Notes: a model not told the origin generated them from the sequence alone. DNA of 32,000 nucleotides from Fibrobacter succinogenes subsp. succinogenes S85 (GCF_000146505.1 NC_017448.1:3720001-3752000); one strand, 5' to 3'; shown: positions 3,789 through 31,946, numbered from the stretch's first letter. Translations and numbers: made by a program.

Positions 3789-4622
3789 ATGAAACCGATA
3801 ATAGAATATAAAGATTACCATCCCTTGATCAAGGATTTCTACGAAGATCAAAAGCGGACTTCGTATTTCTCCTGGCGGGAATTTGCGAAACTCGCGGGGT
3901 TTTCTTCACCGACTTACTTGCGACTTGTGAGCGAAGGCAAGAGCAATTTGAGCCGAGTGTCGATGAACCGCATGATTTCGGCAATGGGGCTTGCGGGTTT
4001 TGAAGCAAACTACTTTATTGCTCTCGTCAATTTTTGCAATGCCAAGGACGATGAAGCTAAAAAGCCGTATTGGAAAGAAATGCGCCAAATTGCGCTTGAA
4101 TTTAAAGTACGCGTCGTCGATAAGGAGGCTGTTGAATATTTCGATGGCTGGAAAAATCAGGTCGTTCGCGAACTTGCACCGATGATGAGTGGGGCCACCC
4201 CAGGGCAGATGGCGAAAACGTGCTGCAACGAAATCTCCGCTGCCGAAGTCAGCAAGTCGCTAGAGTTCCTGACGAAAGCGGGATTCCTGAAAAAAAGTGC
4301 GGACGGCTCGTATCGACAGACCGAAAAGAACGTGACCGCGTCAAAGGAAGGCATGGCCTATGCCGTACACTCGATGCAACGCCAAATGTTGCGACTTGCC
4401 AGTGAATCTATCGAACGCTTTGAACCGCAAGAGCGTAGCGTGTCAAGCGTGACCCTTACGGTCAATCGCGAATGTTACGAACGTATTGCACAAGAAATCG
4501 ATGCGTTCCGCAAAAAGATTGCCGCAATGGCTTCGGAAACAGAAGATGCCGATCAAATCTATCATTTGAATATGCAACTGTTCCCGCTAACTTGGAAATT
4601 AAAAAAAGATGAGGTGGCTTAG
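3789..4622 (+). CDS. TIGR02147/DUF4423-family protein (putative HTH regulator; a family expanded in Fibrobacter)
   Basis: 277 aa. The N-terminus YKDYHPLIKDFYEDQKRTSYFSWREFAKLAGFSSPTYLRLVSEGKSNLS matches my recollection of the family signature (DYR.FLKDYY...FS.R.FA.KAGFSSP..L.LV..GKRNLS). Confidence 0.7.
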   Translation: MKPIIEYKDYHPLIKDFYEDQKRTSYFSWREFAKLAGFSSPTYLRLVSEGKSNLSRVSMNRMISAMGLAGFEANYFIALVNFCNAKDDEAKKPYWKEMRQIALEFKVRVVDKEAVEYFDGWKNQVVRELAPMMSGATPGQMAKTCCNEISAAEVSKSLEFLTKAGFLKKSADGSYRQTEKNVTASKEGMAYAVHSMQRQMLRLASESIERFEPQERSVSSVTLTVNRECYERIAQEIDAFRKKIAAMASETEDADQIYHLNMQLFPLTWKLKKDEVA

Positions 4623-4623
4623 T

Positions 4624-5934
4624 ATGAAAAAGCTTTATAGTTTGTTTGCTCTCGGTGCTCTTTTGTTTGCCGCATGCTCCGATAACGCTTCTCCAGTTTC
4701 GGGCTCGACGAGCGTTCCGAACATGGGAAATAATGTAATGCCAAACACGCCTGTGCTGTGCAGCGTGATGGGCGTGACGGATTCCTTGGAAGCCATTGAA
4801 AAAGGCTGCATATGGTCTCCTGAAATGTGGGGCCCGACAACGGGCTATCGCGTGCGTACTGGTTATGATAATGGGACGAATACTTCGGGTATTTGGACGG
4901 TGAAAACATATCCTGAAGATGCTCATATTGTTATGAAATGGCCTGGGAACGCAACTACAGAATATGATTCGATGGCGCTTGCCGACGTGATTGATAGTTG
5001 TGGCGGTAGTTTGTGCGGAACAGCGCTGTTTATGGGAACAAATGATATTCCTAATAGTGATTATTATCGTAAAAATCAACGTAGAGAACTTCATTTTGAA
5101 TTTTATCTTGCCGGTAAAGATGCATCCGGAAAGTTTGAAAGTGTTGATGCTCGCGATATGGGCGGCATTTGCATTTCGTATTCGGGTCACTTTTACTTGT
5201 TGCAACTTATCCCTGATGATTCGCTTGCTGCACTGATGGATGCCACTGTTTACGATGATTATATATGCGGTATGGGAACTGTTTCTAAGACAGATACAAG
5301 TGTTAGGGAACTATGCTTTTCATGGGACAATTTTACATTTAATGCAAGTCATGGCCGGGTTCCTGGAAAAATTTATCCATCGAATTATGATGTCGTTTCC
5401 CATTTAAAGGGTTTCCGTTTTGTGCTTGATGGATATTTTTATAAAGAAGGTTTTGAAAAGGATTTTAAGATTGCAGGGATAAGTCGCTATAATACGCCTA
5501 GAGTTCCTACAAACAACCTTCATCCAGTCAGAACGGATTGTGAACCCGTTTCTGTGATGAGTTCCGTCTGTGAATGTGATTATGCAGATGATAGAATAGA
5601 TGTTTTAAAAGGAGATAGTGTTTTCAGCAGTTATTATTACTTAATGCAAAATCTTGGCGATGGTGTTGATTCCCTTTCCGAACCAGCGAAGGCTTGTTTT
5701 GAAAGCACAACACAAGAATTGGTTGCTTTCTTTGACAAGAAAATGTCCATAAGGGAAAAGCCTTGCGACAACCCGATTCCTCATGAGGTTATGTGTACTG
5801 ACGGTACGACAAGTGAAACGCTTGAGTATACTGAATTCATGGCAGAATTCAATGATAGGCTTGCAATGTCCTACCAGGATGCTAGCGCAATCGCTGATTC
5901 TCTATATGCTCATTGCATGTCGTTAAATAATTGA
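4624..5934 (+). CDS. Lipoprotein, function unknown (Cys-rich)
   Basis: ATG at 4624 is 1 nt after the upstream stop, with GAGGTGG 7 nt upstream. Signal peptide plus lipobox MKKLYSLFALGALLFAAC. No recognisable catalytic motif. The track start at 4609 is less likely. Confidence 0.75.
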   Translation: MKKLYSLFALGALLFAACSDNASPVSGSTSVPNMGNNVMPNTPVLCSVMGVTDSLEAIEKGCIWSPEMWGPTTGYRVRTGYDNGTNTSGIWTVKTYPEDAHIVMKWPGNATTEYDSMALADVIDSCGGSLCGTALFMGTNDIPNSDYYRKNQRRELHFEFYLAGKDASGKFESVDARDMGGICISYSGHFYLLQLIPDDSLAALMDATVYDDYICGMGTVSKTDTSVRELCFSWDNFTFNASHGRVPGKIYPSNYDVVSHLKGFRFVLDGYFYKEGFEKDFKIAGISRYNTPRVPTNNLHPVRTDCEPVSVMSSVCECDYADDRIDVLKGDSVFSSYYYLMQNLGDGVDSLSEPAKACFESTTQELVAFFDKKMSIREKPCDNPIPHEVMCTDGTTSETLEYTEFMAEFNDRLAMSYQDASAIADSLYAHCMSLNN

Positions 5935-15489: not shown

Positions 15490-16526
15490 AAGTGCTGCAT
15501 GTTGTAAATACAAATTGTTTTTCTGGCGCAGAAAATGTGGTATGCCAAATTATTGATGTCTTTAGAAATGACATGAATATGGCGTACTGTGGCCTTGAGG
15601 GACCGATTAGACAGGCTTTGGAAAAAAGAAATATTAAGTTTTTTCCTATTAAGAAAATGTCTGTGAGCTGTTTAAAAAAAGTGATAAAAGAATTTAAACC
15701 TGATGTTGTTCATTCCCATGATATGCGAGCTTCTTTTTTTACCTCGCTTGCGTGTGGAACAATTCCTCTTGTTTGTCATATTCATAATAATGCTTTTGAT
15801 TCAAGGGCGATAAGTTTAAAAAGCGTGTTGTTTTTGCTGGCAGCTCTAAAGGCTAAGCATATTTTTTGGGTCTCTGATAGCTCATTTGCCGGCTATTTCT
15901 TTCATCAGTTGTTTAAAAACAAAAGCTCAATTTTGTTGAATGTTATAAATGTTGAGTCCTTGATAAAGAAAAAGAATGAAGATTCTTGTGAATACGACTA
16001 TGATGTTGTCTTTGTAGGCCGTTTGACGTACCAAAAAAATACAGAACGCCTTATAGAAGTTTTACATAGATTGGTAGAGAAATGTCCAAATGTGAAATGT
16101 GGTATTGTTGGCGGTGGTGAATTAGCGAATGATACTTCAGATCTTATTAGAGAAAAATTGCTTGATAAGAATGTGTTTATGTTGGGATTTAAAGCTAATC
16201 CTTTGAAAATATTAAGTGACAGTAAGGTGATGCTGATGACCTCCCGTTGGGAGGGGTTACCAATGTGTGCCTTGGAAGCTTTGGCCTTGGGTGTTCCCGT
16301 TGTTTCGACTCCTGTTGATGGCTTGCTTTCTATAATTAATCAAGGTGAGAATGGCTTTTTAAGCGATAATAATGAGGAGCTAGTTGCGTTTTTAACACAG
16401 ATTGTTAATGACGATTCTTTTCGTGAAAAAATGTCAAGAAAGTGTGTAGAACTTAGTGGCGAATACAATGATTTATGTGAGTATAGACGCAATTTGAAAA
16501 GTGTTTACGACAATGCTTGCTGTTGA
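15486..16526 (+). CDS. Glycosyltransferase family 4 (GT-B)
   Basis: 346 aa. ATGA start/stop overlap with the upstream gene. FVGRLTYQKN and SRWEGLPMCALEALALGVPVVSTPVDG. Confidence 0.85.
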   Translation: MKVLHVVNTNCFSGAENVVCQIIDVFRNDMNMAYCGLEGPIRQALEKRNIKFFPIKKMSVSCLKKVIKEFKPDVVHSHDMRASFFTSLACGTIPLVCHIHNNAFDSRAISLKSVLFLLAALKAKHIFWVSDSSFAGYFFHQLFKNKSSILLNVINVESLIKKKNEDSCEYDYDVVFVGRLTYQKNTERLIEVLHRLVEKCPNVKCGIVGGGELANDTSDLIREKLLDKNVFMLGFKANPLKILSDSKVMLMTSRWEGLPMCALEALALGVPVVSTPVDGLLSIINQGENGFLSDNNEELVAFLTQIVNDDSFREKMSRKCVELSGEYNDLCEYRRNLKSVYDNACC

Positions 16527-18870
16527 AACCTTTATGCAGAATTACCTTAGAATCCCGTTTTCTGCTACAATTGCAATTCTGCCAATTTTAGCAGTGTATA
16601 AGTTTTTGCCTGGTGTATCCCTAGCATTCTTTCTATTGTGGTTATGTTTGTTTCCATTACTTTTTTTCTCAAATGAAGAAAAAAAATTTTCTTGGGAAGA
16701 ATATGTTTTTCTACTAAATATTGTAATTATATCTGTATTTGGTGCGATAGTTCATCTTACAATTGATAATGCTTGGTTTGATATAAACTTGTTTTTTCAT
16801 AACATGTTTAGTATTGTTTTATGCGTTATCCCGTTATGCATTGTTGTTAATTTGATTGATGTAAAAGTATTTGTAAAAACAGTGCTTTTTTTTGGTGTGG
16901 TTGTTTCCTTAGTTTTAATTTGGCAATGGGTTTTCTTGTTTTTGACAGGATCTTTTCAAAATGATGTCTTTATTCCTGGACTAGAATTGAATCGACGTGT
17001 TGAAACATTTGTTGTATATAGACCATCGTCTTTTTTTACTGAACCAGCACATTTTTCTATTTATGTGCTTCCAGCTTTTCAAATCGCATTGTTGCAAAAA
17101 AAATATATTTTGACTTATCTTTTTGCGCTGTCAATTTTGTGCTCGAGTAGTAGTACTGGATTTCTTATGTTGGGGATATTGCTTGTGTATCATTTATGTA
17201 AAATAGGTATGTCAAAGTGGTACCTTGCTATTGGCGTTTTGTTTTTGATTGTCCTGAGTATTGTCATCTGTTATTTCCTTTTTTCTGATATATTTTTGGT
17301 CAATATGAATAAGTTGTCTAGGATAAGCAAAGGAAGCTCTGATGACAGATTGTTTGGTCCGCTGGCTTATTTGTCGGCATTCAATGCCTGGGAACATATG
17401 TTCGGAATAACGCTGAATCAATTAGGTAATTTCTCAATTGTTGAAAATGCATGTGGCCTTTCAAAAAATTATGCAAATGCATTGATATATATGTACATTT
17501 CTTTTGGGTTGTTTGGGGTTATAAATTTTATTTTTTATATAGTGAGGAAATGGAGGTCGATTAAGGGGCCGCATGTTTTTTTCTTAATTTTTTTTGGAAT
17601 CTTTTGTACTGACCAAATTTTGTTTAATGCCCATTTCTTTTATTTAATGTGTTTTATTTTGTTGTCTGATCAAATATGTGCCAAATGTGCCAAACAAAAA
17701 AGTAAAGTAGGAAAAATGAAAGTACTATATCTTACTGTACCGTCTTTTTTTGATTTAGATATTTCTCTTGTTCGAGAAATGTCTGCGCTTGTTGATGTTC
17801 ATGTGCTGTTGGTTGTATCTCCACAATCTTTAAAATCTTCAGCTTTTTCAATTGAAAAAATTGATTCAAGATGTGAGATCTTTTCTGCAAATGAATATAA
17901 TGCTATTCAAAAGTATAAAGATGTTATAGATTTAAAGAAATGGTTTGTTGCAAATAATCCAGATAATAGTTTTTTTTCTTGCATCAAATTGTCTAAAAAA
18001 ATAAAAAATTTTATACGTCGGAACCATTTTGATATACTTCATGTTACTTCGGCGTGTAAAACGATATTTTTTTTAACTCCATTTATCTATTCTTTTCCGT
18101 ATACTTTGCTGACTGTTCATGATCCAATTGACCATGGGAATATATCTTGGTTTGAAAATTTCTTTAGACGAAAGATGTTTTACAGAGCGAATAAAAACGT
18201 CCTTCTTTTAAGCACGGCTCTTCTAGATTCGTTTTGTAAAAAATACCATGTGAAAAAAAATAGAATCTATTTTTCCTCATTAAGTGTTTATGATATATTG
18301 ACAACATTCAAAACAATGCGAAACATGTATGGAAACTATATTTTATTTTTCGGTAGGATTGAACCTTATAAAGGTGTTGATGTGCTAGTGACGGCTTATG
18401 AAAAATCGGAACTGCCTTCGAAAGGAATAAAACTAGTTATTGCAGGAAAGGGAAACTTGTGCATTACAGATTCTGACTTGTCTAAGGATGTAATTTTTAT
18501 TAATCGTTTTATTGAAAATGATGAATTGGCGAATTTAATTCGTCATTGTAAGTATGTTGTTTTGCCATACTTGTCGGCGACGCAGAGTGGTTGTGTGATG
18601 TCCGCTTTTGCATTTAACAAACCTGTTTTGGCGACAGATGTAGGTGATTTTCCATTGACAATAGAAAATAGTAAAACGGGAATGATTTGCGAAGCAAATA
18701 ATATTGACAGTCTGTGTAGGGCGATTAATGAAATGAGTAAAATAAATCTGGATATTTTGAGTGCGTGTATAAAAGAACGTTTTTGTGAAAATGGCCCTTT
18801 TTCATGGAGTAGTATTGCGAAATCGTTGTTTAATGTTTATGAATCAATTGTGCTTAATTCGAGGAATTGA
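16513..18870 (+). CDS. Single ORF fusing a Wzy-like O-antigen polymerase/ligase membrane domain (to about 17715) with a GT4 glycosyltransferase (from the in-frame ATG at 17716)
   Basis: The N-terminal ~400 aa is almost entirely hydrophobic helices (>=10 TM by eye). The C-terminal 384 aa starts MKVLYLTVPS and carries GRIEPYKGVDVL and SATQSGCVMSAFAFNKPVLATDVGD. There is no stop between them. AGGA lies 4 nt before the ATG at 17716. Alternative 5' starts are the GTG at 16501 and the ATG at 16534. Confidence 0.7.
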   Translation: MLAVETFMQNYLRIPFSATIAILPILAVYKFLPGVSLAFFLLWLCLFPLLFFSNEEKKFSWEEYVFLLNIVIISVFGAIVHLTIDNAWFDINLFFHNMFSIVLCVIPLCIVVNLIDVKVFVKTVLFFGVVVSLVLIWQWVFLFLTGSFQNDVFIPGLELNRRVETFVVYRPSSFFTEPAHFSIYVLPAFQIALLQKKYILTYLFALSILCSSSSTGFLMLGILLVYHLCKIGMSKWYLAIGVLFLIVLSIVICYFLFSDIFLVNMNKLSRISKGSSDDRLFGPLAYLSAFNAWEHMFGITLNQLGNFSIVENACGLSKNYANALIYMYISFGLFGVINFIFYIVRKWRSIKGPHVFFLIFFGIFCTDQILFNAHFFYLMCFILLSDQICAKCAKQKSKVGKMKVLYLTVPSFFDLDISLVREMSALVDVHVLLVVSPQSLKSSAFSIEKIDSRCEIFSANEYNAIQKYKDVIDLKKWFVANNPDNSFFSCIKLSKKIKNFIRRNHFDILHVTSACKTIFFLTPFIYSFPYTLLTVHDPIDHGNISWFENFFRRKMFYRANKNVLLLSTALLDSFCKKYHVKKNRIYFSSLSVYDILTTFKTMRNMYGNYILFFGRIEPYKGVDVLVTAYEKSELPSKGIKLVIAGKGNLCITDSDLSKDVIFINRFIENDELANLIRHCKYVVLPYLSATQSGCVMSAFAFNKPVLATDVGDFPLTIENSKTGMICEANNIDSLCRAINEMSKINLDILSACIKERFCENGPFSWSSIAKSLFNVYESIVLNSRN

Positions 18871-22766: not shown

Positions 22767-23741
22767 TTAGATGACGAATTTCTTGTTTTTGATTCTATCC
22801 AATTCACCCCTATCAAAAGCGGCAATATTTTCGACAGCCCCTCTCATCATACCCTGGAAGGTTTCAAAGGAAAGCCCAGCAATATGCGGTGTAAGGATTA
22901 CATTATCAAGCGTCTTTAGGGGATCATCTGCTAGCATAGGTTCTTCATAGTGGACGTCGAGCCCAGCAGAGCGAATCTTGCCGGAAACAAGCGCCTTATA
23001 CAGAGCATCTTCGTCAATAAGCTTGCCTCGTGCCGTATTCACTACAATGGCTCCATCCTTCATCTTTTCAAGGGCCACCGCATTTAAAATCTTTTGATTG
23101 TCCGCAGTCAGTGGGCAATGGAAAGAGAGAATATCCGCATCAGGCAGCAGTTCGTCAAATGAAGCCCGGAAAGAGATTCCCAAAGTCTTTTCGACATCTT
23201 CATTTTGGCGGAATATATCCGTATAGATAATGTTGGCTCCAAAAGCATGGAGAATACCAGCCGTAATGCGGCCTATGTTCCCCATGCCAACCATGGCAAC
23301 CGTCTTGCCAAAGAGTTCGTTACAGGAGACTCCAGTTTCCTGCTTTTTCCAAACGCCCTTCTTGACATTCGATGAAATCAGCGGAATGTTCTTGAGACAA
23401 TTTAGAATCAAAGTTACGGTATGCTCAGCCACACTACGGGCATTTATACCAGCATTCACATAAACGGGAATCTTTCGAGCCTTGATAGCTGCTTTGTCAA
23501 GCATTTCCGTACCAACACCTGTACGCTGAATCATTTTCAAGTTTTTTGCGGCAGTCAACACTTCTTCATTTATGAGCAGACGTCCGCTCACAAGAAAATA
23601 GTCGGCATCAACAGCTTCCTTGATAAGCTGTTCTTGCGTCGGTTCATCAAGGGTTTTGATTTCAAAACCTGCAGGGACGACGCTCTTGAGAATTTCCCAG
23701 GGTTTACCCGTGTACCGGTATGTGTGTAGAATTTTTGGCAT
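22767..23741 (-). CDS. D-isomer-specific 2-hydroxyacid dehydrogenase (NAD-binding; PGDH/glyoxylate reductase-like)
   Basis: 324 aa. GMGNIGRITAGIL Rossmann loop, NTARG, and TPHIAG (catalytic His). Its start overlaps the upstream acyltransferase by 38 nt. Confidence 0.85.
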   Translation of the reverse strand: MPKILHTYRYTGKPWEILKSVVPAGFEIKTLDEPTQEQLIKEAVDADYFLVSGRLLINEEVLTAAKNLKMIQRTGVGTEMLDKAAIKARKIPVYVNAGINARSVAEHTVTLILNCLKNIPLISSNVKKGVWKKQETGVSCNELFGKTVAMVGMGNIGRITAGILHAFGANIIYTDIFRQNEDVEKTLGISFRASFDELLPDADILSFHCPLTADNQKILNAVALEKMKDGAIVVNTARGKLIDEDALYKALVSGKIRSAGLDVHYEEPMLADDPLKTLDNVILTPHIAGLSFETFQGMMRGAVENIAAFDRGELDRIKNKKFVI

Positions 23742-24702
23742 AATAGATAATGTGTGAAATAAGCAAGGTTATAAAAACAACAATTAAAGGCAAAACATAC
23801 AACGCAACTACATTAGACGCAACACCGCAAAGTTCATAAACATGCTCCATAGTATGCCAAACAATTGGATGAATAATATACACGAACATAGAGTATCGTT
23901 TTCCTATTATTTGAAGAACCCCAGCATGTTTATTTGGATTGTTTACAGCATAGAGAAATAGACAAAATACTTGGGGAAAAGTAACTATGTTCACACCAAA
24001 ATCTCGCCCCATCAAAAATCTCTCTAACAAGCATAATACAGTACATACAATGGCGATAGCCATTACCCCCCCCCGTGTAAATTTCAGTTTACTTTTATAA
24101 GCATGTATCCAGTTTCCCATCGTAAAGAAACACAAACCCTCAACAAAAAAATTTCTATAGTACATATTTGGAATTTTTATTCCTGCAAGATGCATGCCTT
24201 GAGCTAGAAGTATATAAACAAAAATCATAATCGTTGCAACAACATAGATACTCTTAATTTTATGTACTCTTAAAACAAGAGCGAATAAAACATAATCATA
24301 CAACAAAGCAAATAAAAACCAGTATTGTCCCGCAACGACAAACGGCTGATTAAAAAGGAGCAAGTTAAGTAAAGCGCCTTTGCTAAAATAAAACACAGAT
24401 TTGCCAAATACAAAATATTGAACAAAGTCAAATAAAACATAGGCAACACATGCATACAAGGTTATTTTGCCCACATGCTTTATTTTTCTCGCCATATTGC
24501 TATTTATTTTCTCAGGATTTGCTGAAATAAAATAGCAGAAATAACCAGAAACCATAAAAAATAGCGGAACACAAAAACGGCTTACAGCTTGGACTACCGT
24601 TCCCAACAATCCAGGGAACTCGCAATGCATAAAAACTACGCAAATACACGCAATTCCTTTTATAAAATCCAAACAGTAATTATATTGTTTTGTTTCCGAC
24701 AT
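23704..24702 (-). CDS. Acyltransferase family 3 membrane protein (O-acyl/acetyltransferase), carries a G9 tract
   Basis: 332 aa, polytopic. N-terminal FIKGIACICVVFMHC and VPLFFMVSGY motifs of Acyl_transf_3. Very AT-rich (23% GC in one 60-nt spot count). Confidence 0.8.
   Translation of the reverse strand: MSETKQYNYCLDFIKGIACICVVFMHCEFPGLLGTVVQAVSRFCVPLFFMVSGYFCYFISANPEKINSNMARKIKHVGKITLYACVAYVLFDFVQYFVFGKSVFYFSKGALLNLLLFNQPFVVAGQYWFLFALLYDYVLFALVLRVHKIKSIYVVATIMIFVYILLAQGMHLAGIKIPNMYYRNFFVEGLCFFTMGNWIHAYKSKLKFTRGGVMAIAIVCTVLCLLERFLMGRDFGVNIVTFPQVFCLFLYAVNNPNKHAGVLQIIGKRYSMFVYIIHPIVWHTMEHVYELCGVASNVVALYVLPLIVVFITLLISHIIYYAKNSTHIPVHG
24066..24074 (-). repeat. Homopolymeric G9 tract (coding strand) inside acyltransferase 1; frame intact (ON)
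   Basis: C9 on the plus strand, encoding ..T-R-G-G-V.. at about codon 210. Confidence 0.9.
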
Positions 24703-24708
24703 CTTTGT

Positions 24709-25554
24709 TTACAGCTCCACAGTTGCCCTTCGCGGTTCAAAACAACAGCAGGGACGTAAGGCAACAATCCTAACACCACTCGCACGCTGCGGGCCAACTT
24801 TTGCAAACGTTGCAAGCACGCTAGTCTTGCCACCAAGCCCTAAAGCACCTACATTGGATTCGTTCACCCTTTCCGTGATCGTCTTTTCAAATTCAGACTG
24901 GAAGTCGTAATTGCCCTTGGCCATTGCTTCCATCATCATAGACGTTGCTTCAAACTGCGATCGTCCAATACCAACAGCCAATGTACACGGAGAGCAGCCT
25001 AACTGCGATACAGCCGGAATCGCACGAGCGACAATTTCATCAATCACCACTTGCACGCTATGCTTGTGAAACACGCGCTGCGTAATCCCACGAATAGCTG
25101 GACCACCACCAAGCATCAAAATAGTCAAACGCAAAACATCTTCTTCGACCGGCTTGATCAGAATCGGAGACGGAGCCAAAGCGCCAGAATCAGGATTCAA
25201 ACCGCCTGATTGATCAATACGGTGATAATCGTCGCCCAAAATCGCCATGGGGCGTCCTGGCAACTTGCGAAGTCCAGCCTCAATACCAGCGTGAATCTGA
25301 GCCAAAACATCTCCAGTAACCTGACGATTCGGACCAACCTCAATAAAGATATGTGGAATGCCGGTATCGTCGCACAAAGGCCCACGATTCTTTTCGGCAA
25401 CCAAAGCATTATCTAAAACCTGCTGCATCACCCAACAGCTATTCGTTCCCGGCTCTTTAGCAATAGCCCTGCGATACGCTTCTTTCTGGTCTTCCCTAAA
25501 GGTAGATCCAGCTTGTATCAAACATTCACAAACTTTCTGTTCAATATCTGTCAT
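24709..25554 (-). CDS. Fe-S type hydro-lyase alpha subunit (class I fumarate hydratase N-terminal / tartrate dehydratase TtdA-like)
   Basis: 281 aa. CDDTGIPHIFIEVG corresponds to the C-Q-D-T-G motif of class I fumarase/TtdA. Additional Cys residues (CSPC, CCC) are available for the cluster. Confidence 0.75.
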   Translation of the reverse strand: MTDIEQKVCECLIQAGSTFREDQKEAYRRAIAKEPGTNSCWVMQQVLDNALVAEKNRGPLCDDTGIPHIFIEVGPNRQVTGDVLAQIHAGIEAGLRKLPGRPMAILGDDYHRIDQSGGLNPDSGALAPSPILIKPVEEDVLRLTILMLGGGPAIRGITQRVFHKHSVQVVIDEIVARAIPAVSQLGCSPCTLAVGIGRSQFEATSMMMEAMAKGNYDFQSEFEKTITERVNESNVGALGLGGKTSVLATFAKVGPQRASGVRIVALRPCCCFEPRRATVEL

Positions 25555-25571
25555 AATTCACCACCCAAATG

Positions 25572-26651
25572 TTATAGCACCTTTCCTGTATAAATTTGCT
25601 TATCCCCTAATTTTTTATCTAAAAAATTGAATAGCGGCTTTTCCAATACATAAATACGGCAAATATCAATTATACTACAGGTTAGGAATATAGCAAGAAT
25701 ACTACCTATAGCATATAATGCATAAGAGGGTGCGTCATAATGTCCAACAACGTCAATAAAATCATACCATAACCAATGTCGCATTTCATCACCACTAGTA
25801 TGAATCAGGAACACACCAAAAGTCGAGGCTCCAATTATATTGATTATTCTAGAATAGCCGATTCTCAAATTTTTAAAGAACATAAACAGGGAAACTGAAG
25901 TTATTATAGACATGAAAGCCAAGGATTCTCCTACAAACGCATACACTGGCAAATTCAGCCTTAGACACACAAAAACAGACCCTATAGACAGGATTATTGA
26001 CACAAACGCCCCCCCCCAGAACATTACGTTTTCGTTTCTAAACAGCCCGTAAATGCGAATATACGAGCCTAAAATGTATAGTATAATAAACCACGATAAA
26101 TAATTATAATGCAGATGCAATCCCGGAATTTGATAGAAACCAGAATAAATAGTAATGCAAAGAATCAATAATAAAAGATGCTTTGTTTTATCCATTCCCT
26201 TTATTAGTATGTTTAAGAACGGTATAAACAAGAAAAAAGCCATAAACGCATTTGTGAACGAATCTGTAATACTAGAAAAAGGAAGTAAGCGTTTTAACAA
26301 GGCCCCACCAGATATAGCAGTCATCCCAACGCATGCAAAGACAAACAATATTATATACCTGTAAAATTTTACCTCTAGATATAATTTCAAGTATTTTCTC
26401 AAAGATATATTTGAAAAGCACATAAAAAAGCCAGTTATTAACACAAAACAATTAATACCGGTTTTCCCCCACATACCAAGAATCAAATAAAAAATAGAAT
26501 TTGTACTAGTAGGATTTGCAAACAAGGGACCATCGGCATTCATCAAGCCTGAATTAACCACATAATGATGAGCCACGATTGATAGCATCACTAAAATGCG
26601 ATACAGTTCAATATTCGACGAACGAGGCTTTTTTTTTACGATTTCAGTCAT
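25572..26651 (-). CDS. Acyltransferase family 3 membrane protein, carries a G9 tract; sits between the beta and alpha hydro-lyase genes
   Basis: The ATG at 26651 is 1 nt after the beta-subunit stop (TAGTATG). The track start at 26684 would overlap by 32 nt. ELYRILVMLSIVAHHYVV and polytopic hydrophobic repeats typical of Acyl_transf_3. Confidence 0.8.
   Translation of the reverse strand: MTEIVKKKPRSSNIELYRILVMLSIVAHHYVVNSGLMNADGPLFANPTSTNSIFYLILGMWGKTGINCFVLITGFFMCFSNISLRKYLKLYLEVKFYRYIILFVFACVGMTAISGGALLKRLLPFSSITDSFTNAFMAFFLFIPFLNILIKGMDKTKHLLLLILCITIYSGFYQIPGLHLHYNYLSWFIILYILGSYIRIYGLFRNENVMFWGGAFVSIILSIGSVFVCLRLNLPVYAFVGESLAFMSIITSVSLFMFFKNLRIGYSRIINIIGASTFGVFLIHTSGDEMRHWLWYDFIDVVGHYDAPSYALYAIGSILAIFLTCSIIDICRIYVLEKPLFNFLDKKLGDKQIYTGKVL
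26009..26017 (-). repeat. Homopolymeric G9 tract inside acyltransferase 2; frame intact (ON)
   Basis: C9 on the plus strand, encoding ..F-W-G-G-A.. at about codon 212. This is the same relative position as the tract in acyltransferase 1. Confidence 0.9.
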
Positions 26652-26652
26652 A

Positions 26653-27156
26653 CTAGTAAATACTCTCACCCTTTGCAGCTGCAATGATTGCCTGATACTT
26701 GTTAACCTTTATTCGGTGAAGCGCTTCCATCCCAAGTTCGGGATAGCAGACAACTTCTCGTTCTTCTGTCTGGCTTTCCAGCAAAGCCGTAACCGGAGGA
26801 ATCACCGCAAAAACGGCATTATTTTCAGCCAAGGCCTTAACCGTCTCTGGCTTGATGGCGCCCTTACCTAAGTGCATCTTGATACCATGGCGAGAAAGAG
26901 GTTCAAAGCTGCTTTCAATTTCCAACTTGTTACTGGAGGTGGGACCCACGCCCGCTGGACTCACCGCCGTATGGAAAATCACCTGCCCTTGTAAATCAAC
27001 ACCAACTTCAGAAAGAGTCCCTTCTTCGGCATGTTTCACAATTTTAGGCAAAACGGCATCGCGCCCTGTATAAATGTAACCGGAAATAGAAACAACATCA
27101 CCAACTTTGAGCTTGGCAATATCTTCTTCGCTAAATGGAGTTGTCAGTTCTATCAT
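26653..27156 (-). CDS. Fe-S type hydro-lyase beta subunit (fumarate hydratase class I C-terminal / TtdB-like)
   Basis: 167 aa. GDVVSISGYIYTGRDAVLPKI and the following beta-rich segment match the Fumerase_C-type subunit. ATGA overlap with the upstream PrpD-family gene. Confidence 0.75.
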   Translation of the reverse strand: MIELTTPFSEEDIAKLKVGDVVSISGYIYTGRDAVLPKIVKHAEEGTLSEVGVDLQGQVIFHTAVSPAGVGPTSSNKLEIESSFEPLSRHGIKMHLGKGAIKPETVKALAENNAVFAVIPPVTALLESQTEEREVVCYPELGMEALHRIKVNKYQAIIAAAKGESIY

Positions 27157-28490
27157 AACAGATTTATAACCTCGTCAATAGTAAACTCAGGACGATAAAC
27201 AATATCAATCAGCTTCTCACAAACATCCTTGCTATATCCAGCAAAAGACATCAAGCCCTCGATTTTCTGCCGAAATTCTTCTGGGGTCAGCGGATTTTCC
27301 GGTTCGCCCTTGGGATAATCAATCCTTGCGGAAAACAGCCCCGTTTTCGTTTTTACATCAACTAAAGCAGCACGGCGTTGTGGGCAGAGCGCAGTAAACT
27401 CATCATCCGCCACAACATCTATTTTTTGGGCAATATCAAGAATCCGCTGATCCGCGACATTAGCCTTCGAAAACTCGTTAAGCCCAGCATTTCCCGTAAA
27501 CAGAGCTACTGCAACACTATATGGCATACTCATTTTTGCGGAATTTACGCCATCCACTAGTTTATGGTCATGCCCCGCGACCGCAAGCTTATATGTATGA
27601 ACACAAACAGATTCTACTTCATCCAATAAAAAACCTGGTTGCTGACGAATTTTCATTGCGGCTTCAATTGCCGGATGTGTATGTCGACAAGAGGCATAAG
27701 GCTTGTTGTAAATAGACATGATGCTGAAAGAATCATTTTCAAAGTCCTTCAAAAAAGATATCTTTGCTTCATCAGTCATCACAGCCAAAAAGCCACGCTT
27801 GCCACCAAGAGCATCATTGGGCGCTTTAAATCGAGCTTTACCAAGATATGCAGCAGAAACGGCATCCATCGCCGCTCTACCAACATTCAACGGTTTTAAG
27901 TCAGCATTATCCTCCTGCATTTCAAGCACCCCGGCAGCGGACGTTACCGCGGCAGAAAAAGCGGACTTCATCTGTTCAAAATCAAAATGAAGTGCCGCAG
28001 CAATGGCCATAGTTGCCCCAACCGTTCCACATGTGCCCGTGGCGTGATATCCACGTAATTTGTTTCCCGGTTGTACCGCACAAGCCAAGCGAATCGTCGT
28101 TTCATAACCAATAATGGCTCCATACAAGAAATCTTGCATGGATATTTTTTCTTTTTCAGCAACAGGAAGCAGGGCCGAGAAAATAGTTCCTCCAACATGC
28201 ACCGCCCCCTTGCGATGACCGTCATCTAATTCCATAACATGCGAGTTCATTCCGTTTATCAATGCCGCCGTCTGTAGGGAACATTTGGGAGGCAAACCAA
28301 TAACCGAAGAAGCTCCATTACCGAATTCCAAAGAATCTATATAAGCGAGATCTTTTTCGTAAAAAGCTTTCGCTCCAGCCAAAGTGCATGCAAGAAAATC
28401 GATAAAACAATTCTTCGCCTGAGTAAAAACCTTTCCTGGAATGGAATCCTTTGATTGTTTTATCAAATTTTTCAAGAAGTTATCAGTCAT
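27153..28490 (-). CDS. MmgE/PrpD family protein (2-methylcitrate dehydratase superfamily)
   Basis: About 445 aa from the ATG at 28490 (the track TTG at 28511 is the alternative). The length and the ...NCFIDFLACTLAGA..., ...MELDDGHRKGAVHVGG... and ...KPYASCRHTHPAIEA... segments are characteristic of MmgE/PrpD. Confidence 0.8.
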   Translation of the reverse strand: MTDNFLKNLIKQSKDSIPGKVFTQAKNCFIDFLACTLAGAKAFYEKDLAYIDSLEFGNGASSVIGLPPKCSLQTAALINGMNSHVMELDDGHRKGAVHVGGTIFSALLPVAEKEKISMQDFLYGAIIGYETTIRLACAVQPGNKLRGYHATGTCGTVGATMAIAAALHFDFEQMKSAFSAAVTSAAGVLEMQEDNADLKPLNVGRAAMDAVSAAYLGKARFKAPNDALGGKRGFLAVMTDEAKISFLKDFENDSFSIMSIYNKPYASCRHTHPAIEAAMKIRQQPGFLLDEVESVCVHTYKLAVAGHDHKLVDGVNSAKMSMPYSVAVALFTGNAGLNEFSKANVADQRILDIAQKIDVVADDEFTALCPQRRAALVDVKTKTGLFSARIDYPKGEPENPLTPEEFRQKIEGLMSFAGYSKDVCEKLIDIVYRPEFTIDEVINLL

Positions 28491-28582
28491 TTGATTCTCA
28501 CAAAATTTCAATCCGTAATTTTAAACTTTTAACAAATAACATGCATCGAGTTTAGAAAAAAATATAAGATCTTTGTGTCATA

Positions 28583-29682
28583 TCAAATATTTACAGGTAC
28601 ATTTAACGACATTTGCTTTATCATAAGGCGACGAATTACATTCATTCGATGATTATACAGCTTACGGATTACTCCATAAAAAGGAGCTTTAACTAAAAAT
28701 CCACAAAAAGACATATGCAGTTTAAGCAAAAAGGAATAATACAATCCAAGAATGTTGTTAGGCGATAAGCTTACAAAAGTGTATCTTGATTTAATCTTAT
28801 GATCAATCTGTATTTCTGCAATCATACCAATTCTATTAAAGCTTTTCCAAATAACAAGAGATTTATTTTCGACCTTTTTCGGATAAGCCCATATTTTCTC
28901 TAATCCATTTAGAGAAGCTGGATAAAACATTGGCCTTGGAACATCCATACAAATATCAGGAAAAAGGAAGTTTCCTAAACTGAAAAAAATATCTTTTCCT
29001 TTATATTTCGTGTGTGGATTAATAACATGCGGATGACTTCCTATTATCGCATCAGCCCCTGCATCAATCATTTTTTTTGCATATTCATAGCAGTATGAAG
29101 GAGGGATAAAAACATGTTCTTCCGCCCAATGAGGTAGAACAACCACTTTGTCATAACTTTTTTTTAGTTCTGAGATGTTTTGTTGAATTTCCTCAATGGT
29201 CGTCTGATAAATGCCAAATTCTGTATCTGTCGCAGGATGAAAAATCATAGGAGCAAAGCCATGGAAACAGCATCCTATAAATGCCACCACCTGTCCGTCT
29301 TTCTTAATTACAGCTGGCTTACGCGCTTCTGAAAAGTTTTTCCCAGCTCCGCAAAAAAGAATCCCCTTTTGAGACAAGAGTTCAATTGTATGAACCATCC
29401 CTTCCAAGCCTAAATCTGAAAAATGATTATTGGCTAAAGTGACAAGATTTATGTTCATTTCTTGTAATTTTGCAAGGTCTTCGTCTCGAGCGTAAACAAT
29501 CGCTTTTGTCTTCGCCATTTTTCGTTCATCATAAGCAAAATGATTGCCAATCGCACATTCTAAAGTTCCTATTCTAAAATCAAATGTAGACATATACTCC
29601 AATAATTCCTTGGTTATAAAGGAATCTTGATAGGAGAGCCCCCCCCCCCAGGAACAATATCTCCACAAAATAGTAAATTCAC
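28583..29682 (-). CDS. CapA/PGA_cap-family metallophosphoesterase; reading frame broken at a G11 tract (phase-OFF as sequenced)
   Basis: The body frame (28583-29638) shows CapA-like motifs (TLECAIG, ANNHFSDLG, GSHPHV). Upstream of the tract a different frame reads GTG-NLLFCGDIVPGGGG, starting at the GTG at 29682 that overlaps the upstream TGA (GTGA). G12 or G9 would join the two frames. Confidence 0.7.
29639..29649 (-). repeat. Homopolymeric G11 tract at codons ~12-15 of the CapA-like gene
   Basis: C11 on the plus strand, counted directly (29639-29649). Confidence 0.9.
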
Positions 29683-30782
29683 TTTAGTATCGCCTCTTTG
29701 AATTCATCATAAAAACCACGACCGAGAGAAATCTGAGGCATAATTATATCACCCCAATTTCCTTCGATTAGCACCCATCCCTGAGTAGACAAAGCAAAAT
29801 CAAAACCAATATATTTATGACATTCAGGCAATGACTTATGAACTTCTTGTGCAAATTTTTTTAAAGATTCCCATTCAGGAATTTTATATCCTTTAAATAC
29901 TTTATTACTTTCTGGGTGTTCCTTGAAAACTCGGCCTAATTCATCATGACCATCAGTTATGATGATACCAGTATTCGAATCTATCGCTGCAAAAACGCCA
30001 CCGCAACCAGCATTGTCAACGACACTTCCTTTTCGCCCTACTCGTAACACGGAAACCATTGTTGAAAAATCAGAGCCCTTTCGAAAAGAAAAATAACGAA
30101 TTGTATTGACACTGGATTCGTTCCACTCGGCCATTCTAGCATCTTGTTTGACAAGTTCTTCTACGATATATGAGCCATTAGAGCGCAAGTAGTCAAAAAC
30201 CTCATCAGCACTCTTTTCCAACAACGAGATAATTTCAACGCCTTTGCCACAAGCCCCCTTGCTTGGTTTTGCTATAAAACGATCAAGTCCTTGACAAAAA
30301 AGTTTAAAATTAGACCTATCATCCTCACTATCTACTTTACAAGCTTTCCGTTTAAAGAACTGACCTGCAATTGAATAGAAAATATTTTTGTCTTTTAATT
30401 GCGCTAAAGCATCCTTCCAATTTTTTCCAATTGCTTCCATGCAAAGTTTATCTTTTCGCATACGTGAAATATATTTATTTCGTTCATATGCATTTTTCTT
30501 TGGGAATCCATATGAAAAGTATTCATTAGCCGTCATTCCATACTTTCTATAAGACAGTATGATATCTCGAATAACAGATTTTCTATATGCAGAATCATCC
30601 AACTGCTCCTTACTCAAGAATATCTTACAGTTATCCTCTATATCGGAAAAACAATCTCGTTGGCCCCACCAAACAATCTTTTTTTTCTTAGCATTATTGT
30701 ATAAGCGATCTGCCATATAAGTAGGAAATATGTTCCACTTAGCTTTATTCATCAAATCTTTAATTCTACGAACAATTTTCAT
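29679..30782 (-). CDS. Sugar-transfer-associated ATP-grasp (ATPgrasp_ST / alpha-L-glutamate ligase-related) protein
   Basis: 367 aa. AKPSKGACGKGVEII, VEELVKQD...SVNTIRYFSF, VDNAGCGGVFAAIDSNTGII, IPEWESL and IGFDFALSTQGWVLIEGN. Confidence 0.8.
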   Translation of the reverse strand: MKIVRRIKDLMNKAKWNIFPTYMADRLYNNAKKKKIVWWGQRDCFSDIEDNCKIFLSKEQLDDSAYRKSVIRDIILSYRKYGMTANEYFSYGFPKKNAYERNKYISRMRKDKLCMEAIGKNWKDALAQLKDKNIFYSIAGQFFKRKACKVDSEDDRSNFKLFCQGLDRFIAKPSKGACGKGVEIISLLEKSADEVFDYLRSNGSYIVEELVKQDARMAEWNESSVNTIRYFSFRKGSDFSTMVSVLRVGRKGSVVDNAGCGGVFAAIDSNTGIIITDGHDELGRVFKEHPESNKVFKGYKIPEWESLKKFAQEVHKSLPECHKYIGFDFALSTQGWVLIEGNWGDIIMPQISLGRGFYDEFKEAILK

Positions 30783-30812
30783 CTTATGAATTCCAATTTT
30801 GCACTATAATGA

Positions 30813-31946
30813 TTATACACCGAATAATTCCAGATAACTCTTTTCAGACTCTATTACGCCATAGGCTTCGGCACGCATTGAAATCTTTGTCGCCCAGTTG
30901 GTATGAGGCTTGATTTCGTTCATGCCCTTGCTGCCCTTAATCACCCCACCGGAAGTATGCAAAATCTGGTAGGCGTCATTGTATTCATCTTGCGTAACAG
31001 CAAGCATGCCATTGATGAAGTTCAAGTGGGTCGGATGGATACATGTCTTGCCCATAAAACCATTCGCCTGGTCCAGAATAAGTTCGCGCATCAAGCCATC
31101 AACCGCATCATTTACCACCGGCGAACGTTTCAGCAACGTATCTTGGATGTCAACCTTCGGCAGATCGCAAAACTTCATACGCTTGTTTACACGGAAATAT
31201 TCCCACACCGGTCCAGAAACTGTATAATCGTTGTTACGGGTAAAGAAGTTCAAAATATCCATCAAGCAATCACGAACAGTCATCACATCGTAAATCGTAT
31301 AGTTGATTCCTCTACGGACACCAAAGCACGACGAGAAATCCGTACCGCCCACGCGAATATTCAAAATCAGGTCTTTATGTTTGTCGCATTCCTGTTTGAT
31401 AGCCATCAGTTCCTGAGCGCGGCTTTCCTTGAACGCGACTCGCGCATCTTCAATAATGGGCATGCCATATATAATCTCACCAAACTTGGCATTGAGTTCA
31501 ACAAGGTGTTCCATATAAGGAGCGGATGTCAAGCTATTGAATTTCGGAAAATTAAACCCGCAAAGATACCGAATGTGACGAGGCTCAAGCATCGCAGCAA
31601 AATGCTTAAACTGTTCAACGGAACGAACCCGGAAGAAAATTAGCGGAATATCTTCGTATTTCAGCGTTCCATTTTTTTCACATTCCGCAAGAGTGTCCAA
31701 CACATGGATAGAATTGATTTCCGCAGCAGGCACGTCTTCTTCTTTGCAGGCATCTTCGAAGCACATCACCATGGAGGTGAGACCAGGATACTTCTTATCG
31801 ATAATCGCCTGTGCAAAATCCTTGGTGCCAGGCATATACATAGTGGCCCCCAGGCAATATTGCAAAAGACTACGGTCCGTATACTTGTTGAAATCGACCG
31901 GTTCTTTTACAAACTTGAAATTCGGATTATACTGATGATGTTTCAT
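30813..31946 (-). CDS. HpcH/HpaI aldolase / citrate lyase beta (CitE)-like TIM-barrel C-C lyase
   Basis: 377 aa. MYMPGT, MCFEDA (metal-binding acidic pair) and GKTCIHPTH (compare CitE GK..IHP.Q). It is longer than canonical CitE, resembling the extended C-C bond lyase subgroup found next to ATP-grasp genes. Confidence 0.7.
   Translation of the reverse strand: MKHHQYNPNFKFVKEPVDFNKYTDRSLLQYCLGATMYMPGTKDFAQAIIDKKYPGLTSMVMCFEDACKEEDVPAAEINSIHVLDTLAECEKNGTLKYEDIPLIFFRVRSVEQFKHFAAMLEPRHIRYLCGFNFPKFNSLTSAPYMEHLVELNAKFGEIIYGMPIIEDARVAFKESRAQELMAIKQECDKHKDLILNIRVGGTDFSSCFGVRRGINYTIYDVMTVRDCLMDILNFFTRNNDYTVSGPVWEYFRVNKRMKFCDLPKVDIQDTLLKRSPVVNDAVDGLMRELILDQANGFMGKTCIHPTHLNFINGMLAVTQDEYNDAYQILHTSGGVIKGSKGMNEIKPHTNWATKISMRAEAYGVIESEKSYLELFGV

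Follow-up and report, generated by a model that had tools for sequence, protein, structure and literature searches.

A 32-kb stretch of the Fibrobacter succinogenes S85 chromosome was analysed for three long poly-G tracts that lie in genes for surface-glycan modification. The stretch (the window; all coordinates below are those of its full length) comes from a genome record of 3,843,004 bp with ADL protein accessions. It contains a Wzx/Wzy-type surface-polysaccharide locus, which encodes an initiating sugar transferase, GT2 and GT4 glycosyltransferases, pyruvyl transferases and ATP-grasp ligases; a flippase and an EpsG-type polymerase are encoded downstream of the window. Two of the tracts are located in acyltransferase genes, designated here AT1 and AT2, and the third one in a CapA-like gene (CapA/PGA_cap). 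All three genes are on the minus strand. The features are listed below, where ON and OFF denote the in-frame and the out-of-frame state of a gene.

23704-24702, minus strand: AT1, Acyl_transf_3 membrane O-acyltransferase of 332 aa (ADL26314.1; Fisuc_2661 in the second S85 genome)
24061-24065, minus strand: TAATG directly 3′ of tract 1; its TAA is the in-frame stop at G11
24066-24074, minus strand: tract 1, G9 on the coding strand (C9 on the plus strand), AT1 codons 210-212 (CGG GGG GGG G), in frame (ON)
25572-26651, minus strand: AT2, Acyl_transf_3 acyltransferase of 359 aa from ATG 26651; the RefSeq form is also 359 aa
26009-26017, minus strand: tract 2, G9 on the coding strand (C9 on the plus strand), AT2 codons 212-214 (TGG GGG GGG G), in frame (ON)
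28583-29682, minus strand: CapA/PGA_cap gene with start GTG 29682, frameshifted in the window
29639-29649, minus strand: tract 3, G11 on the coding strand (C11 on the plus strand), from codon 12 of the CapA-like gene, out of frame (OFF)
29679-30782, minus strand: ATPgrasp_ST, whose TGA stop (29679-29681) overlaps the CapA GTG start (29680-29682) as GTGA

Both acyltransferases pass the gathering score of Pfam family PF01757 (cut-off 31) with full-length matches. The AT1 match (E = 4.4e-30, 105.3 bits) covers profile positions 1-320 of 326, and the AT2 match has E = 1.4e-13 and 51.1 bits. The mechanical open reading frame (ORF) of AT2 reaches TTG 26684. The JGI label on homologues is 'surface polysaccharide O-acyltransferase-like enzyme'. 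In the case of the CapA-like protein, the closest solved relatives are poly-gamma-glutamate synthesis proteins, e.g., 8gq9.

A first-pass annotation of the window had reported C9, C9 and C11 runs on the plus strand, and their coordinates and lengths were found to be exactly as given there. The recount also agreed with its statement that no other run of G or C longer than 5 occurs in the 32 kb. No G/C runs of at least 6 were found in the ~20 kb flanking the window in the same genome (L052, L055), and the three tracts are the only such runs across 52 kb of S85 DNA. In 100 dinucleotide-preserving shuffles, a mean of 0.01 G9 matches was expected, as compared with 5 overlapping matches observed. 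Independent-base and Markov estimates gave 0.001-0.05 expected runs of at least 9. In agreement with the first-pass annotation, the three tracts are not a chance occurrence. The 60-nt spot counts of 23-30% GC given there do not hold for the whole genes, whose GC content is 33.9% for AT1, 33.7% for AT2 and 35.2% for CapA. The description of these genes as the three most AT-rich of the operon holds within the minus-strand operon, where ATPgrasp_ST comes next at 35.5%, but the plus-strand glycosyltransferase genes are lower in GC (31.6% and 32.8%). GGG is the rarest glycine codon in the locus (55 of 375).

The length of each tract sets the reading frame of its gene, and the state of AT1/AT2/CapA in the window is ON/ON/OFF. 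The placement of the tracts inside surface-modification genes was correct for the intact AT1 and AT2, where they begin at codons 210 and 212 as previously noted (the latter counted from ATG 26651). It did not hold in the same way for tract 3, which at G11 frameshifts the CapA gene, and this OFF frame had been overlooked. From GTG 29682, the CapA frame reads VNLLFCGDIVPGGGGSPIKIPL* (29614-29682), with a stop after 22 codons. The reading before the loss of frame, from GTG 29680-29682, is VNLLFCGDIVPGGGG, and the remaining ~350 codons are in another frame, in the ORF at 28583-29668. When the length of tract 3 was changed in silico, G9 gave a product of 365 aa and G12 a product of 366 aa, and G10, G11 and G13 gave 22-34 aa. 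The G9 form matches PF09587 (PGA_cap) over profile positions 2-254 with 185.6 bits. This in-frame form is the only one with a full-length PGA_cap match that includes the N-terminal segment; the G11 form is without profile positions 1-26. The public annotations of the gene in the window genome are ADL25895.1 (361 aa, TTG start) and WP_157747962.1 (336 aa, internal Met), and they match PGA_cap only from positions 27 and 38, respectively. Both are by-products of the G11 frameshift, and the intact protein is the one of 365 aa in the other S85 genome. The GTGA overlap, which is also present in another Fibrobacter lineage (L023), would imply translational coupling of ATPgrasp_ST and CapA, as judged from the gene arrangement. 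A protein considered as a CapA OFF allele of another strain (P0026) was rejected; its locus, L023, has an in-frame G9, and the gene caller picked an internal Met.

Tract lengths were compared among the available sequencings of strain S85. The comparison set consisted of a second, independent complete genome (CP001792; 3,842,635 bp, Fisuc locus tags) and about 20 single-run S85 assemblies (Logan), reached through look-ups with neighbouring genes and variant proteins. The lengths were taken from the finished genomes and from assembled contigs. S85 loci showed 0 substitutions relative to the window over 2 to 18 kb, and homopolymer indels were the sole differences. The two independently finished DNA genomes are identical over the 24 kb compared except for the three tracts, whose lengths differ by 3, 3 and 2 bases:

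Tract 1 (AT1): G9 in the window, G12 in CP001792
Tract 2 (AT2): G9 in the window, G12 in CP001792
Tract 3 (CapA): G11 in the window, G9 in CP001792

Within S85 as a whole, tract 1 ranges from G9 to G13 and tract 2 from G9 to G12, and tract 3 is either G9 or G11; both gains and losses are seen. The S85 genomes and the fully traversed assemblies represent six phasotypes, written as the G counts of tracts 1/2/3:

9/9/11: the window
12/12/9: CP001792, SRR5185596 and SRR2081160
11/12/9: SRR6059866
10/12/9: SRR32643343 (tract 1 is G10 also in three sister runs)
12/11/9: SRR5194756
13/10/9: SRR5194749

AT1 is ON at G9 and G12. At G10 and G13 it is frameshifted to products of 257 and 258 aa, and at G11 it ends after 213 aa. 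AT2 keeps its frame (ON) with G9 and G12 and loses it (OFF) with G10 and G11. CP001792 and the majority of assemblies have G12 at tract 2. With G11, in SRR5194756 and SRR4240285, AT2 falls into two pieces of 219 + 143 aa, and with G10, in SRR5194749, into pieces of 259 + 113 aa. The truncated proteins predicted for contingency switches were present in the protein collection. For AT1, the 333-aa product was found on 35 contigs, the 213-aa product (ending in FTRGGG) on 18, the 257-aa product (G10) on 5, with a one-residue variant on 1 more, and the 258-aa product (G13) on 1 contig. The 360-aa AT2 product was found on 25 contigs, with split forms in three runs, and the 365-aa CapA-like product on 85. 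The assignment of all 18 contigs with the 213-aa product to G11 alleles is only partly true. Among the ten loci listed, five traverse G11 to the TAA stop and five end inside the tract. The read-through is clean in L005 and L006, lies at an error-laden contig start in L009, and is accompanied by other homopolymer or base errors in L008/L010 (SRR018586/7).

These data support hypermutable poly-G contingency switches, as first proposed. The opposite explanation is that each tract has one fixed length and that the assemblies differ through miscounted homopolymers, and several observations speak for it and against real variation. Illumina and especially 454 sequencing are error-prone on long G runs, and L008 (SRR018586) contains further homopolymer errors that split another gene. 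Two contigs start with a spurious ~28-base poly-C that abuts tract 2, and the lone A6 versus A5 difference in the window resembles an error. In a published resequencing of S85 at ~400x, no variant relative to CP001792 is listed for the tract genes. The CapA OFF state was seen once, in the window genome only; CP001792 and all the other S85 assemblies that span tract 3 have G9 there. Tracts 1 and 2 are the exact end points of many contigs, possibly for technical reasons. Finally, the public runs may include both DNA and RNA libraries, the source papers giving project numbers only. For the SRR326433xx series, at least, RNA-seq is the probable source, as nothing else was deposited by the S85 co-culture study, and therefore transcript slippage is inseparable from DNA alleles in those runs.

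Against an artefact stands the difference between the two finished DNA genomes, which is confined to the tracts. The run series also agree internally: tract 1 is G10 in four SRR326433xx runs and G11 in both SRR60598xx runs that traverse it (SRR6059866 and SRR6059848), three others breaking inside the tract. Single assemblies show one of two ~G12 tracts shortened and the other not, and the affected tract is reciprocal between runs (L005, L015 versus L019). Since tract 3 is an identical G9 in 85 contigs, a run of this length is evidently read reliably. Taken together, we regard a sequencing or assembly artefact as very unlikely.

The contig breaks may be noted in their own right. About a dozen single-run contigs end at tract 1 or 2 (L007, L011-L014, L006, L009, L016-L018, L054 and L003/L053), and contigs of ~1.95 kb run from tract 2 to tract 1. 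Such ends fit branching of the assembly graph and also poor poly-G coverage, and they could reflect either mixed tract lengths in the sample or poor sequencing of poly-G.

The two acyltransferase tracts occupy corresponding positions. In both AT1 and AT2, the segment upstream of the tract ends at Acyl_transf_3 profile position ~206-207, and a hydrophobic helix follows next after the tract. The first-pass annotation had offered either inheritance by duplication or selection for the site. A duplication origin was rejected, as pairwise comparison of AT1 and AT2 revealed no detectable similarity (BLASTP E = 4.6). The alternative, selection for the site, is favoured by the location of both tracts just after profile position ~207. 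The use of an equivalent loop by two proteins without detectable similarity would therefore imply convergence on a permissive site, as read from the family profile. The loop encoded by the AT1 tract varies in length and sequence among homologues, which is why extra glycines should be tolerated there. At tract 1, the TAA of the TAATG motif overlaps the ATG of a 119-aa ORF that corresponds to the C-terminal part of AT1, and gene calls in G11 assemblies place the 213-aa and 119-aa products next to each other. It is conceivable from this arrangement that AT1 at G11 gives a two-piece enzyme, through re-initiation as a split protein, rather than a null.

The tracts were also found in other Fibrobacter lineages from metagenomes (L021-L023 and L058-L060). 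The same sites are kept, with tract 1 absent from one lineage; identities are those of AT1 to S85 at the nucleotide level:

L021/L022, 98.7% identical: AT1 G9
L060, 86% identical: AT1 G9
L023, 80% identical: CapA G9 with the GTGA overlap kept; AT1 tract absent (TSGWV)
L058/L059, 73.6% identical: AT1 G14 and AT2 G9, both in frame

AT1 is ON at G14 in L058/L059 because the flank differs from that of S85. At third codon positions, AT1 of this lineage is 55% identical to S85, and AT2 is 51% identical. The persistence of an uninterrupted tract made of the rarest glycine codon, GGG, at this level of third-position identity argues for selective maintenance of the tracts across lineages, in so far as it can be judged by sequence comparison. 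Two further runs were noticed. In L058, a G7 at 3838-3844 lies at about codons 9-11 of an ATP-grasp ligase gene (3812-5047), where S85 is without a run; it is possibly an additional switch of that lineage. L025 is a metagenome contig 98% identical to AT1 which at 821-829 has G9 and an extra T (GGGGGGGGGTTAATGG), with a frameshift to the 257-aa form P0010. This variant is explained either by an indel next to the tract or by a G-to-T change in a G10.

More distant AT1 homologues from rumen metagenomes (46-56% identical), which are probably Bacteroidales according to their named database relatives, carry G7-G8 at about codon 65-75, in another loop than the S85 tract. These tracts are at L039 215-222, L048 1474-1480, L047 289-295, L031 6221-6228, L033 2503-2510 and L049 6195-6201. 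L039 (G8) is in frame, and its near relative L048 (G7) and also L047 (G7) are frameshifted. In 214 kb of homologue loci, 12 of the 13 G/C runs of at least 7 are G on the acyltransferase coding strand, and 7 are inside acyltransferase genes.

The distribution of the tracts bears on the possibility that they do slip but without adaptive meaning, so that laboratory stocks gather frameshifts in dispensable glycan genes under relaxed selection. It would fit this explanation that the within-strain variation is all among laboratory S85 cultures, that AT1 is often OFF (several run series have G10 or G11), and that lineage L023 is without the AT1 tract. It fits poorly with uninterrupted tracts of the rarest glycine codon held at the same place in lineages whose synonymous positions have mostly been randomised (third-position identity 51-55%), with the placement of the AT1 and AT2 tracts in the same loop of dissimilar proteins, and with the occurrence of both expansions and contractions together with in-frame G9, G12 and G14 alleles. 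Homologues in other rumen bacteria also show the same pattern at another site. We consider non-adaptive hotspots unlikely, although less so than an artefact.

Another explanation is recoding, in which transcriptional slippage or ribosomal frameshifting restores the frame and the G11 CapA gene is still expressed. RNA polymerase slippage on long homopolymers is known (PMC3711429, introduction), and some of the varying assemblies are probably derived from RNA. A programmed frameshift should, however, stay out of frame, and the conserved out-of-frame arrangement was not found at CapA; instead, L023 and the other S85 assemblies have an in-frame G9. The two DNA genomes themselves differ, and polymerase slippage is best documented for A/T runs, not for G runs. 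We judge recoding to be extremely improbable.

The reading that we prefer, and hold to be highly probable, is slipped-strand phase variation of surface-glycan modification at the three poly-G tracts. Its mechanism is modelled on the contingency loci of Campylobacter, Neisseria and Haemophilus (PMC8437040, PMC5084427, PMC11868660). By this analogy, the tracts would be hypermutable repeats that gain or lose G residues through slipped-strand mispairing in replication, reversibly and at a switching rate of the contingency-locus kind. Each tract would independently toggle one gene of the Wzx/Wzy locus between the in-frame and the frameshifted state. By tract length, AT1 and AT2 are in frame (ON) with G9 and G12 and out of frame (OFF) with G10, G11 and G13, and CapA/PGA_cap has its frame with 9 or 12 G residues and loses it with 10 or 11. 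With OFF forms presumed to be non-functional, three independent switches could yield up to eight surface-glycan variants per clonal population. The expected pay-off would be bet-hedging against phages, protozoan grazing and shifting adhesion needs in the rumen.

The closest known system is that of Campylobacter jejuni, in which poly-G contingency genes occur in the capsule, lipooligosaccharide and flagellar-glycosylation loci (PMC8437040, PMC6321876, PMC8355987), and phage resistance is a known pay-off (PMC8224891). The S85 locus resembles it in having intragenic G/C homopolymers of about 8-13 bases in low-GC glycan-modification genes, and several putatively independent switches per polysaccharide locus, whose frameshift ON/OFF states would combine into surface variants. 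Unlike C. jejuni, S85 is not a pathogen but a free-living cellulose degrader of the rumen, it belongs to another phylum (Fibrobacterota), and its putative switch genes are two AT3 acyltransferase genes and one for a CapA/PGA_cap protein, with three tracts in 52 kb.

Phase-variable glycan O-acetyltransferases of mucosal pathogens are known from Neisseria poly-G genes (phasome of simple sequence repeats, SSRs; PMC5084427), H. influenzae oafA (PMC6479036) and E. coli K1 NeuO (PMC3046976). As in these cases, O-acylation of a surface glycan would be gated in S85 by a repeat in the acyltransferase gene, so that the modification varies and not the backbone. The Neisseria poly-G acyltransferase examples are pglI, oatWY and lot3. 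The repeat is a homopolymer in S85, whereas oafA uses tetranucleotide repeats and NeuO a heptanucleotide; NeuO is, moreover, a hexapeptide-repeat enzyme and not an AT3 protein. The mid-gene position of the tract, in a loop before a transmembrane helix and in two AT3 genes without detectable mutual similarity, also sets S85 apart from these systems. In Bacteroides fragilis, a frameshift in a C run of an acetyltransferase gene was described and slippage was suggested (PMC3090145). It is likewise a gut commensal that diversifies its capsule, but it does so mainly by invertible promoters, and its run is only 4-5 C, compared between strains. Homopolymeric tracts have been surveyed as prokaryotic gene switches (PMC2831843), and phase variation has been studied in Bordetella and M. 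tuberculosis (PMC1891110, PMC10334774). Those surveys likewise treat coding homopolymers as reversible frameshift sites, on evidence from comparing assemblies or isolates. No Fibrobacter match for homopolymer or phase-variation surveys was found in the literature searched.

The minus-strand operon at 22767-31946 is a mosaic in GC content, in which enzyme genes of 43-49% alternate with genes of 34-35% (AT1, AT2, ATPgrasp_ST and CapA). Its gene content differs by lineage (window 22767-31946 versus L021, L023, L058 and L060). In S85 and L058, AT2 is flanked by the fumarase-like beta and alpha genes, and L021/22, L023 and L060 are without AT2; the ATPgrasp_ST and CapA pair is missing from L021/22. 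From their composition and distribution, the tract-bearing genes look like inserted accessory modules. The operon also encodes, on the minus strand, a C-C_Bond_Lyase, an MmgE/PrpD-like dehydratase, a two-subunit class-I-fumarase-like enzyme and a D-2-hydroxyacid dehydrogenase. Their genes adjoin those of ATP-grasp ligases and an aminotransferase, and this enzyme set suggests synthesis of an unusual organic-acid glycan substituent. A scan of species-representative genomes with the PrpD-like protein gave only a 55%-identical metagenome-assembled genome of Prevotella, without tracts, and did not recover S85 itself.

The A6 mentioned above is at 17696-17701 on the plus strand, in the ORF 16501-18870, and A5 was found in 8 of 8 other S85 assemblies covering the site. 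The extra A lies in a 25-nt gene overlap and fuses the genes for a 398-aa protein of unknown function and a 394-aa GT4 protein into a 789-aa ORF. Rather than a switch, this difference is probably an error, or else a mutation private to the genome record.

SSR phase variation is textbook knowledge for host-adapted pathogens such as Campylobacter, Neisseria, Haemophilus and Helicobacter. Full-text literature searches returned no report of poly-G phase variation in Fibrobacter or in rumen fibre degraders, in line with the first-pass annotation, whose author was not aware of one in Fibrobacter-like organisms. They returned no relevant paper for the Fisuc locus tags either, and the paper on the S85 genome contains no comparison of the two assemblies for the tract sites. 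The mechanism is well known, and its occurrence in Fibrobacter would be new to the literature searched. A wider proposal, for which we see roughly even chances, is that S85 runs a combinatorial poly-G phasome on the decoration of its surface polysaccharide, with independent origins of the tracts in AT1, AT2 and the homologues, and that this is an unrecognised general strategy in the rumen, probably directed against phages and protozoa.

The claim of phase variation is directly testable on public reads. If it is true, the reference strain S85 is not one genotype, and laboratory stocks differ in the ON/OFF states of their glycan genes. This would be a hidden source of phenotype differences among S85 stocks and a possible confounder in studies of cellulose adhesion, vesicles, phage susceptibility and genetics. 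Contingency bet-hedging would then shape cell surfaces also in a commensal niche on plant fibre, where the likely selective agents would be phages and protozoa rather than antibodies.

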